64,000 bases of DNA from NCBI RefSeq assembly GCF_055900595.2, contig NZ_CM148325.1; one strand, written 5' to 3'. The position numbers and the translations under genes are program-made. Positions 17,936-21,689 of this stretch are shown here, piece by piece; the stretch's first letter is position 1; every line of letters begins with the position of its first letter. The notes below the pieces were generated by a model. That model saw nothing but the letters and a program-made list of their open reading frames with translations. It ran no database searches and was not told the origin of the DNA.

Positions 17936-18424
17936 ATGGTCTGGATTGATTACGCCATAATCGCGGTGATTGCTTTTTCCTCTCTGGTTAGCCTGATCCG
18001 CGGCTTTGTTCGTGAAACGTTATCGCTGGTGACATGGGGTTGTGCTTTCTTTGTCGCCAGTCATTACTACACTTACCTGTCAGTCTGGTTTACGGGCTTT
18101 GAAGACGAACTGGTTCGAAATGGGATTGCCATCGCGGTACTGTTTATCGCGACACTGATCGTTGGCGCTATCGTGAACTTCGTGATAGGTCAGTTGGTTG
18201 AGAAAACCCACCTGACGGGCACCGACCGGGTGCTGGGCGTCTGTTTCGGTGCGTTGCGCGGTGTGTTGATTGTTGCTGCCATTCTCTTCTTTCTCGACTC
18301 CTTTACCGGGGTGTCGAAAAGCGAAGACTGGAGCAAATCACAGCTGATCCCGCAGTTCAGTTTTATCATCAGATGGTTTTTTGATTATCTGCAAAGCTCG
18401 TCAAGTTTCTTGCCCAGAGCGTAA
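17936..18424 (+). CDS. cvpA: Colicin V production membrane protein
   Basis: 162-aa hydrophobic ORF immediately upstream of purF. Confidence 0.9.
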   Translation: MVWIDYAIIAVIAFSSLVSLIRGFVRETLSLVTWGCAFFVASHYYTYLSVWFTGFEDELVRNGIAIAVLFIATLIVGAIVNFVIGQLVEKTHLTGTDRVLGVCFGALRGVLIVAAILFFLDSFTGVSKSEDWSKSQLIPQFSFIIRWFFDYLQSSSSFLPRA

Positions 18425-18460: not shown

Positions 18461-19978
18461 ATGTGCGGTATTGTCGGTATCGCCGGTGTTATGCCGGTTA
18501 ACCAGTCGATTTATGATGCCTTAACGGTGCTTCAGCATCGCGGTCAGGATGCCGCCGGCATCATCACCATTGATGCCAATAACTGCTTCCGTTTGCGTAA
18601 AGCGAACGGGCTGGTGAGCGATGTCTTCGAAGCTCGCCATATGCAGCGTTTGCAGGGCAATATGGGCATTGGTCATGTGCGTTACCCCACGGCTGGTAGC
18701 TCCAGCGCCTCTGAAGCGCAGCCGTTTTACGTTAACTCCCCGTATGGCATCACGCTTGCCCACAACGGCAATCTGACCAACGCTCATGAGTTGCGTAAAA
18801 AACTGTTTGAAGAAAAACGCCGCCACATCAACACCACTTCCGACTCGGAAATTCTGCTTAATATCTTCGCCAGCGAGCTGGACAACTTCCGCCACTACCC
18901 GCTGGAAGCCGACAACATCTTCGCCGCCATCGCCGCTACAAACCGCTTAATCCGCGGCGCGTATGCCTGTGTGGCGATGATTATCGGCCACGGTATGGTG
19001 GCTTTCCGCGATCCTAACGGTATTCGTCCGCTGGTACTGGGGAAACGTGATATCGACGACAATCGCACAGAATATATGGTCGCTTCCGAAAGCGTTGCGC
19101 TCGATACCCTGGGCTTTGAGTTCCTGCGTGATGTCGCCCCAGGCGAGGCGATTTACATCACTGAAGAAGGGCAGCTGTTTACCCGTCAGTGCGCTGACAA
19201 CCCGGTCAGCAATCCGTGCCTGTTCGAGTATGTTTACTTTGCCCGTCCGGACTCGTTCATCGACAAAATTTCCGTTTACAGCGCACGTGTGAATATGGGC
19301 ACCAAGCTGGGCGAGAAAATTGCTCGTGAATGGGAAGATCTGGATATCGACGTGGTGATCCCCATTCCGGAAACCTCGTGTGATATCGCGCTGGAAATCG
19401 CCCGTATTCTGGGTAAACCGTATCGTCAGGGCTTTGTGAAAAACCGCTACGTTGGTCGCACGTTTATCATGCCGGGTCAGCAGCTGCGTCGTAAGTCCGT
19501 GCGCCGTAAACTGAACGCCAACCGCGCTGAATTCCGTGATAAAAACGTCCTGCTGGTCGATGACTCCATCGTCCGTGGCACCACTTCTGAGCAGATTATC
19601 GAGATGGCACGCGAAGCCGGAGCGAAGAAAGTGTATCTCGCCTCAGCGGCACCGGAAATTCGCTTCCCGAACGTTTACGGTATCGATATGCCGAGCGCCA
19701 CGGAACTGATCGCTCACGGTCGCGAAGTAGATGAAATTCGCCAGATCATCGGTGCTGACGGGTTGATTTTCCAGGACCTCAACGATTTGATCGAAGCCGT
19801 TCGCGCTGAAAACCCGGATATCCAGCAGTTTGAATGCTCGGTGTTCAACGGCGTCTACGTCACCAAAGATGTTGATCAGGGCTACCTCGATTTTCTCGAT
19901 ACTTTACGTAATGACGACGCCAAAGCAGTGCAACGTCAGAACGAAGTGGAAAATCTCGAAATGCATAACGAAGGATGA
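18461..19978 (+). CDS. purF: Amidophosphoribosyltransferase
   Basis: 505-aa ORF starting MCGIVGIAG (N-terminal nucleophile Cys) with PRPP-binding motif [13 protein letters not shown]. Confidence 0.96.
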
Positions 19979-20072
19979 TGCCTTCGCTCAGGGTGCCGGT
20001 CTGGCACCCTGACTTGCAACTCCCGCCGAAATCCTGCAAAGTCTGCCTGCAAGTCTGACAGGGCAACTATTT

Positions 20073-20642
20073 ATGAAACGACTCATTGTAGGCATCAGCG
20101 GTGCCAGCGGCGCGATTTATGGCGTGCGTTTATTACAGGTTCTGCGTGATGTCGCAGATGTTGAAACGCATCTGGTAATGAGCCAGGCGGCGCGCCAGAC
20201 CTTATCCCTTGAAACGGATTTCTCCCTGCGTGATGTGCAGGCATTAGCCGATGTCACGCACGATGCGCGCGATATTGCCGCCAGCATCTCTTCTGGTTCT
20301 TTCCAGACGTTGGGGATGGTGATTTTACCCTGTTCAATCAAAACCCTGTCCGGCATTGTGCATAGCTATACGGATGGCTTACTGACCCGTGCGGCAGATG
20401 TGGTGCTGAAAGAGCGTCGCCCGCTGGTGCTCTGCGTGCGTGAAACACCGCTGCACTTAGGCCACCTGCGTTTAATGACTCAGGCGGCGGAAATCGGTGC
20501 GGTAATTATGCCTCCCGTTCCGGCATTTTATCATCGCCCGCAATCCCTTGATGATGTTATAAATCAGACGGTTAACCGTGTTCTTGACCAGTTTGCGATA
20601 AATCTACCCGAAGATCTCTTTGCCCGCTGGCAGGGCGCATAA
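20073..20642 (+). CDS. ubiX: Flavin prenyltransferase UbiX
   Basis: 189-aa ORF MKRLIVGISGASGAIYGVRLLQVL, flavoprotein fold signature. Confidence 0.93.
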   Translation: MKRLIVGISGASGAIYGVRLLQVLRDVADVETHLVMSQAARQTLSLETDFSLRDVQALADVTHDARDIAASISSGSFQTLGMVILPCSIKTLSGIVHSYTDGLLTRAADVVLKERRPLVLCVRETPLHLGHLRLMTQAAEIGAVIMPPVPAFYHRPQSLDDVINQTVNRVLDQFAINLPEDLFARWQGA

Positions 20643-20823
20643 CTCCACTGTTGCCCTGTTTCAGGGCAATTTTGCAACCGCGATCAAATCCTCAACATTT
20701 TGTTTCTGCCATTCAATCGAAACGCTGCGATTCAACCGCTATACCTGCTATCTTCAACTTCAGGACAATAATGCAACGTCTTGTTAACATATTTAACGTT
20801 GAATGTTACTGTTGTCGTCAAGA

Positions 20824-20839
20824 TGGCATAAGACCTGCA
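20824..20839 (+). promoter_or_regulatory. Sigma-54 (-24/-12) promoter of argT
   Basis: TGGCAT-N5-CTGCA with GG and GC 12 nt apart, about 70 nt upstream of the argT ATG; argT is a known NtrC/sigma-54 target. Confidence 0.7.
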
Positions 20840-20906: not shown

Positions 20907-21689
20907 ATGAAGAAGTCGATTCTCGCTCTGTCTTTGTTAGTCGGGATTTCCGCAGCAGCTTCCAGCTACGCGGCGCTGCCGGAGACGGTACGTATCGGAA
21001 CGGATACCACCTATGCACCGTTCTCATCGAAAGATGCCAAAGGTGACTTTGTTGGCTTTGATATCGATCTCGGTAACGAGATGTGCAAACGGATGCAGGT
21101 GAAATGTACCTGGGTTGCCAGTGACTTTGACGCGCTGATCCCCTCACTGAAAGCGAAAAAGATCGACGCCATTATTTCGTCGCTTTCCATTACCGATAAA
21201 CGTCAGCAGGAGATTGCCTTCTCCGACAAACTGTACGCCGCAGACTCTCGTCTGATTGCTGCCAAAGGTTCACCGATTCAGCCAACGCTGGATTCACTGA
21301 AAGGTAAACATGTGGGTGTGCTGCAGGGATCAACCCAGGAAGCGTATGCCAATGATAACTGGCGCAGTAAGGGTGTCGATGTGGTGGCCTATGCTAACCA
21401 GGATTTGGTCTATTCCGATCTGGCTGCAGGACGCCTGGATGCCGCTCTGCAAGATGAGGTTGCTGCCAGCGAAGGTTTCCTCAAGCAACCTGCCGGTAAA
21501 GATTTCGCTTTTGCAGGCCCTTCAGTGAAAGACAAAAAATACTTCGGTGACGGCACCGGTGTCGGGCTACGTAAAGATGATGCTGAACTGACGGCTGCGT
21601 TTAATAAGGCGCTTGGCGAGCTGCGTCAGGACGGCACCTACGACAAGATGGCGAAAAAGTATTTCGACTTTAATGTCTACGGTGACTGA
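20907..21689 (+). CDS. argT: Lysine/arginine/ornithine-binding periplasmic protein
   Basis: 260-aa ORF with signal peptide and about 70% identity to the adjacent hisJ paralogue. Confidence 0.93.

Follow-up and report, generated by a model that had tools for sequence, protein, structure and literature searches.

The region analysed here lies within a 64,000-nucleotide window (the whole stretch of DNA that was analysed) and carries cvpA, purF, ubiX and argT on the plus strand. The genes and the elements between them are given below in window coordinates, with the evidence for each in brackets.

17936-18424, plus strand: cvpA (NCBIfam; identity to annotated E. coli chromosomes)
18461-19978, plus strand: purF coding sequence, stop codon TGA at 19976-19978 (open reading frame list; TIGR01134, E = 7e-163; E. 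coli annotation)
19988-20012, acting as plus-strand RNA: hairpin H1, TCAGGGTGCC-GGTCT-GGCACCCTGA, 10 bp with a 5-nt loop (fold; conserved pairing)
20014-20016, plus strand: 3' ends of cvpA-purF RNA in MG1655 (Term-seq 2428685; SMRT-Cappable-seq 2428683)
20014-20042, plus strand: block M, TTGCAA (20014-20019), a 17-nt spacer and CAAAGT (20037-20042) (46 of 46 spacers)
20044-20065, plus strand: stem H2, UGCCU at 20044-20048 with GGGCA at 20061-20065, which includes the ubiX Shine-Dalgarno sequence AGGG at 20060-20063 (fold)
20073-20642, plus strand: ubiX coding sequence, the downstream cistron, into which some transcripts continue (open reading frame list; NCBIfam; E. coli annotation)
20651-20674, plus strand: hairpin TTGCCCTG-TTT-CAGGGCAA (20651-20669) followed by TTTTG (hairpin search)
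20907-21689, plus strand: argT (NCBIfam; identity to annotated E. coli chromosomes)

Directly behind purF, the inverted repeat CAGGGTGCC-GGTCT-GGCACCCTG that had been reported in an earlier note is present at 19989-20011 with the sequence claimed, and since T19988 also pairs with A20012, the hairpin, termed H1, has ten perfect pairs in the window strain (19988-20012), seven of them G-C. It begins 10 nt 3' of the purF stop, the open reading frame ending at 19978, and is not followed by a T-run, both as the note had stated, with the next 9 nt (CTTGCAACT) containing three T residues and no run. Likewise, a consensus terminator scan did not flag the site. The fold has an energy of -20.2 kcal/mol (z = -4.6), with none of 200 shuffles equally stable, and 12 stem/loop combinations of perfect hairpins of at least 10 bp were observed in the 64-kb window versus 0.43 expected from dinucleotide shuffles. 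A permissive Rfam scan of 19500-20500 gave chance-level matches only. A REP/BIME element was considered and rejected, as H1 is single-copy and carries no REP consensus.

A 33-nt query spanning H1 was found in exactly one place in 5425 of 5426 complete E. coli genomes (E up to 10), and in the genome matches this place always lies between purF and ubiX and bears no annotated feature. Over the query, 2043 of these genomes are identical to the window and 3373 differ by one base, which in the aligned strains is a G at 19989, as in K-12. This K-12-type G creates a G.G mismatch near the stem base and leaves an 8-bp core stem, while in one further strain the loop has lost 1 nt and the stem is unaffected; E. 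coli polymorphism in H1 is confined to harmless positions. A single genome, that of E. coli B27 (L001, NZ_AP027424.1 1522221-1523255), gave only an 87% identical match to the query; there ubiX is unannotated, the purF-argT gap is ~400 nt versus ~930 nt, and a degenerate remnant of the ubiX start is present, with H1 and the TTGCAA block both intact.

Two other features touch the end of purF. Minimum-energy folding predicted a 6-bp stem (CGAAGG-AUGAUG-CCUUCG) across the stop codon at window positions 19968-19985, which is also seen in E. albertii and in the form GAAGGU/ACCUUC in Citrobacter (L006) and Photorhabdus (L058), and is absent from Enterobacter. There is also a 27-codon open reading frame at 19975-20058, overlapping the purF stop through ATGA, which was rejected and is probably no gene because the invariant bases lie in other frames in other genera and many relatives have no ATG. 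The CFT073 annotation places an unknown gene, c2854, in the same operon, and this may be the 27-codon frame or an antisense one.

Conservation of H1 was assessed with orthologs taken at first from a PurF genome scan, which yielded spacers from Escherichia, Citrobacter sp. and E. cloacae. As a UbiX homolog search returned almost only Escherichia and Citrobacter, metagenomes were then scanned for spacers at the DNA level, using a pattern in which nothing but the end of purF and the start of ubiX was fixed. The resulting set comprises 46 distinct purF-ubiX spacers from at least seven genera, and exact look-up of UbiX placed Citrobacter koseri, Enterobacter hormaechei, Leclercia, Silvania, Kosakonia and Scandinavium among them. 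An H1 equivalent is present in all 46, with a stem of 7-11 bp, a loop of 3-6 nt and a start 6-13 nt past the purF stop, and is followed in every case by two to five T residues in the next 8 nt, never by a T-run. When each of the 46 was compared with its own shuffles, a median of 0.5% of shuffles folded equally well. The stems themselves are lineage-specific (CAGGGTGCC, GTGAGGGC, GCGAGGGC, GCAAGGGCGC, GCGCCCCTC, ACGCCCTCTC and CGCCTCCGG), and within the Enterobacter group the stem is fixed and the loop hypervariable.

MAFFT with RNAalifold missed H1 in the 46 spacers because stems of different sequence were misaligned, and a covariance model was built on the Enterobacter-type subset and used for realignment. 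In this alignment, which leans to the structure because it was fitted to the model, seven of eight modelled pairs showed changes on both sides and 96.7% of cells were paired (slid controls: 27-57%), with a covariation score of 0.214 versus 0.081 for shuffles, a value reached by none of 500. Against this model bias we added the per-sequence shuffles given above and an alignment anchored on TTGCAA. The anchored alignment, with 36 sequences, showed U-A 23 times, C-G 12 times and G-C once at pair -2; G-C 23 times, A-U ten times and C-G twice at pair -3; and C-G 25 times and U-A three times at pair -8. Furthermore, G.U pairs occur in H1 on the plus strand (L005, L006, L106 and L118), which indicates that the selected structure is the mRNA and not a DNA palindrome. 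These comparisons of sequence clearly point to H1 pairing having been kept by selection across the Enterobacteriaceae.

Position 3' of purF is occupied differently in some relatives. Where no ubiX follows purF (L007, L009, L010 and L016), a canonical hairpin with a T-run stands behind the gene, and in three Erwiniaceae-like loci (L023, L093 and L115) a hairpin with a T-run is found before ubiX at the same position.

Published maps of RNA 3' ends cover the site. The Term-seq data of Adams et al. 2021 list a 'primary' purF 3' end in MG1655 at 2428685 on the minus strand (Supplementary file 1, PMC7815308), with ~26,300 and ~27,500 reads in two of three condition sheets (PMC7815308); judging by sheet order, these two would be LB OD 0.4 and M63, with the end absent from LB OD 2.0. 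From the coordinates of purF (2428721-2430238) and ubiX (2428057-2428626) in NC_000913.3, this end corresponds to window position 20014, which is 2 nt downstream of the 10-bp stem, or 4 nt when counted from the core stem of K-12. The earlier note had named Term-seq of purF transcripts as its check, and the published data thus supply a precise end 2 nt past the stem. Likewise, SMRT-Cappable-seq (Yan et al. 2018, Supplementary Data 1, PMC6131387) lists a 'novelTTS' at 2428683, equal to window position 20016, for transcripts that carry a 5'-triphosphate and start at 2430799, the cvpA promoter (PMC6131387).

The same long reads show that not all of these transcripts end at H1. With M9, 868 reads were counted at the start, of which 254 end at the site and 191 pass it, with 68 ending within 50 bp downstream and a median read-through of 99 nt; with rich medium the figures were 190 reads at the start, 113 ending at the site, 25 passing, 29 ending within 50 bp downstream and a median read-through of 126 nt. 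Thus, taking the reads that end at the site or pass it as the total, ~57% (M9) and ~82% (rich) end at H1 while 43% and 18% pass, and many of these 'passing' reads halt soon after, in early ubiX. The cvpA-purF and cvpA-purF-ubiX variants are both listed with the same start site, and the purF site is tabulated without individual discussion or an assigned mechanism (PMC6131387). Co-transcription of ubiX, which the note had raised as a possibility, is borne out by the longer variant, and uniform read-through lacking 3' ends at the hairpin, the outcome it had named as refuting, is not what the published maps show.

Our interpretation, to which we assign a probability of about 0.7, is that H1, a stem-loop lacking a U-tract, sets the 3' end of the cvpA-purF mRNA, protects it and thereby attenuates ubiX. 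Most transcripts made from the cvpA promoter, which PurR controls, would end a few nt past H1, with a minority running through ubiX. The first end would be made downstream, by Rho that loads on the untranslated, C-rich spacer and the beginning of ubiX, or else by an endonuclease, after which 3'-to-5' exonucleases would trim the RNA back to the stable H1, which would shield the upstream message from them. The expected outcome would be abundant, stable purF mRNA and far less ubiX mRNA from a single promoter. The proposal made in the earlier note, of a 3' stabilising type of stem-loop and not a canonical intrinsic terminator, is supported by the lack of a U-tract and by the Term-seq end 2 nt past the stem.

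This reading follows from the match between H1 and a class described by Dar and Sorek 2018, in which precise steady-state 3' ends lie just past stable stem-loops without a U-tract (PMC6061677), the downstream sequence is biased towards C over G, and the ends arise when PNPase and RNase II trim RNAs that Rho has terminated at diffuse positions (PMC6061677). At purF, the 38 nt after the stem (20013-20050) have a C/G count of 15/7, which ranks at the 97th percentile within the window, and the mean count in the orthologs is 13.0 C against 5.7 G over 35 nt. No bicyclomycin-sensitive (Rho) region is listed by Adams et al. between 2427800 and 2428999 (Supplementary file 2, PMC7815308), a point against the reading, in which Rho is one candidate for the agent that makes the first end.

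The spacer behind H1 contains a second conserved element. TTGCAA-N17-CA(A/C)AGT, which we term block M, is present in 46 of 46 spacers, 0-6 nt behind the end of H1, in a C-rich, G-poor stretch. Of its 30 columns 14 are invariant (TTGCAA............TC..GCA.AGT.), compared with a control value of 6 of 50 third-codon positions (12%) in each flanking gene. Compared with the sigma-70 consensus, TTGCAA-17-CAAAGT fits in spacing and matches 7 of 12 positions, including A at -11 and T at -7, and falls below the scan threshold. No transcription start near window position 20049 was present in the Cappable-seq files, which are possibly incomplete, and SMRT-Cappable-seq contains no ubiX-only unit, although its library was size-selected for >1 kb (PMC6131387) and a ubiX-only transcript of ~0.6 kb would therefore be missed. 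A literature search on the ubiX promoter, dedF, ubiX with bicyclomycin, and the sequence itself found nothing relevant.

A sigma-54 promoter, TGGCAC-N5-TTGCA, was also considered for this junction and rejected, as the elements in TGGCACCCTGACTTGCA stand one base too far apart and the 3' arm of H1 is not TGGCAC in other genera. Nearby RpoN SELEX peaks fall in the argT and cvpA intergenic regions (2425832 and 2429072), with none for the purF-ubiX spacer (PMC8743547).

From its conservation and layout we tentatively suggest that block M may be an unannotated ubiX regulatory site, most simply a weak, PurR-independent internal promoter, an idea that we hold to be possible and not probable. If it were true, H1 and block M would together form a compact junction of purF end and ubiX start, synthesis of the prenyl-FMN cofactor for ubiquinone would be partly uncoupled from purine repression, and the share of read-through would be tuned by growth condition, as in the M9 and rich-medium figures of 43% and 18%.

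Between block M and ubiX lies the stem H2, which has five modelled pairs with 91.5% of cells paired and in most genera takes the form GCCCU with AGGGC. As it is largely invariant, covariation cannot test it. H2, which encloses the Shine-Dalgarno sequence, may hold ubiX translation low.

The strongest competing explanation is that H1 is a weak, non-canonical intrinsic terminator with a poor U-tract, CUUGCAACU, perhaps aided by NusA or NusG, whose ends are nibbled by a few nt. In stability the stem equals those of intrinsic terminators, the mapped 3' ends are precise, and Adams et al. call no Rho region at the locus. The purF end is found, according to the strain and the mapping method, 2-6 nt beyond the stem, a distance with which weak hairpin-driven termination plus slight trimming is strictly speaking still compatible. 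These ends are, however, nearer the stem than is usual for intrinsic release, which typically occurs 7-9 nt past it; moreover, only two to five T residues stand in the 8 nt behind the stem in all 46 spacers, the consensus terminator scan does not call H1, and further read ends are spread diffusely downstream. When run-off transcription was carried out in vitro with pure holoenzyme, cvpA, purF and ubiX had similar sigma70/sigmaS ratios, which fits read-through when no factors are present and speaks weakly against this explanation. The Erwiniaceae-like loci with a hairpin and T-run at the same place before ubiX count in its favour, and they suggest that a site may shift from one state to the other through changes in U content, in line with a proposal of Dar and Sorek (PMC6061677). 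Taken together, we regard a weak intrinsic terminator as unlikely, while giving it serious weight.

H1 could alternatively act chiefly on ubiX translation, with its C-rich 3' arm (CCCUG) competing with H2 for the Shine-Dalgarno AGGG in the read-through RNA. A CCCU or CCUC motif is indeed found on one arm of H1 in every lineage, the Shine-Dalgarno region reads AAGGG, and in L092 an 11-nt stretch of complementarity joins the 3' arm plus TTGC to GCAAGCAAGGG; but such complementarity is expected of any GC-rich stem, the Shine-Dalgarno sequence is already paired locally by H2, and the stability of H1 far exceeds that of the alternative pairing. As the mapped 3' ends would also be left unexplained, we give this explanation little credence.

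That H1 adjoins the invariant TTGCAA block, with its promoter-like spacing, might instead suggest that the hairpin is the by-product of a DNA element, namely a palindromic operator beside a ubiX promoter. We consider this very improbable, since it is the pairing and not the stem sequence that is conserved, a DNA palindrome would be mismatched where G.U pairs occur on one strand, and the loop varies in length from 3 to 6 nt. Finally, a functionless chance palindrome, for which nothing speaks beyond the small size of the feature, is already refuted by the conservation of pairing, and is equally at odds with the fold z-score, the shuffle counts and the mapped 3' ends.

Downstream of ubiX, the read-through transcript likely ends at the hairpin at 20651-20669, a position for which no 3' end appears in Adams et al. 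(PMC7815308). Directly behind it, at 20672-20691, lies a look-alike of the first half of block M (TTGCAAC-N7-AAATCC), the only other match to TTGCAAC-N5-10-AATCC in the window (0.09 expected), which other genera carry within a linear block, TTTTGYAAC.GCGATCAWATCCTCRACATTTAAT, that is conserved upstream of argT. Kosakonia keeps this block and is missing the 5' arm of the ubiX hairpin. Further towards argT, TGGCATAAGACCTGCA at 20823-20838 fits the sigma-54 -24/-12 pattern. The argT leader itself is a GcvB target. The argT-ubiX spacer contains an RpoN SELEX peak (PMC8743547), and the argT start sites from SMRT-Cappable-seq map to window positions 20762 and 20820 (PMC6131387). There is also an 'orphan' RNA 3' end at ~20874 (MG1655 2427825, minus strand) with 576,000-961,000 reads, far above the purF end (PMC7815308), located 34 nt upstream of the argT start in CA-rich sequence with no hairpin.

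With H1 read as a protective, end-defining stem-loop, a single promoter under PurR control would yield much purF mRNA but little of ubiX, and the simple picture of a cvpA-purF-ubiX operon that the annotation conveys is corrected. H1 is an ordinary member of an already known class of mRNA 3'-end structures, and its site already stands in two published 3'-end catalogues. Modestly new are the selection on its pairing across the Enterobacteriaceae and its fusion to an invariant 29-nt block, which appears to be undescribed; neither alters the current understanding of termination.

Among known systems, H1 resembles the class of Dar and Sorek, sharing with it a GC-rich stem-loop directly before a precise end, the absence of a U-rich tail, and a C-over-G bias with diffuse ends downstream. 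It differs in being intra-operonic, between two co-transcribed genes, whereas that class marks the ends of transcription units, and at the purF site Rho dependence and trimming by PNPase and RNase II are putative. H1 is similar in size and energy to canonical intrinsic terminators and like them stands behind a stop codon, and a true one takes its place in relatives without a downstream ubiX; unlike these, H1 has no U-tract of 7-9 nt, its RNA ends lie 2-6 nt rather than 7-9 nt past the stem, and read-through is substantial.

Stem-loops between cistrons can give the genes of one operon different mRNA stabilities, as do the REP element between malE and malF and the puf hairpins of Rhodobacter. 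H1 likewise stands between an abundant upstream and a scarce downstream cistron, and RNA of the upstream part builds up with a 3' end at the hairpin, although unlike the malE-malF REP element H1 occurs once and bears no REP consensus. It also resembles the condition-dependent partial terminators that create operon variants, in whose published table the purF site itself is entered (PMC6131387).
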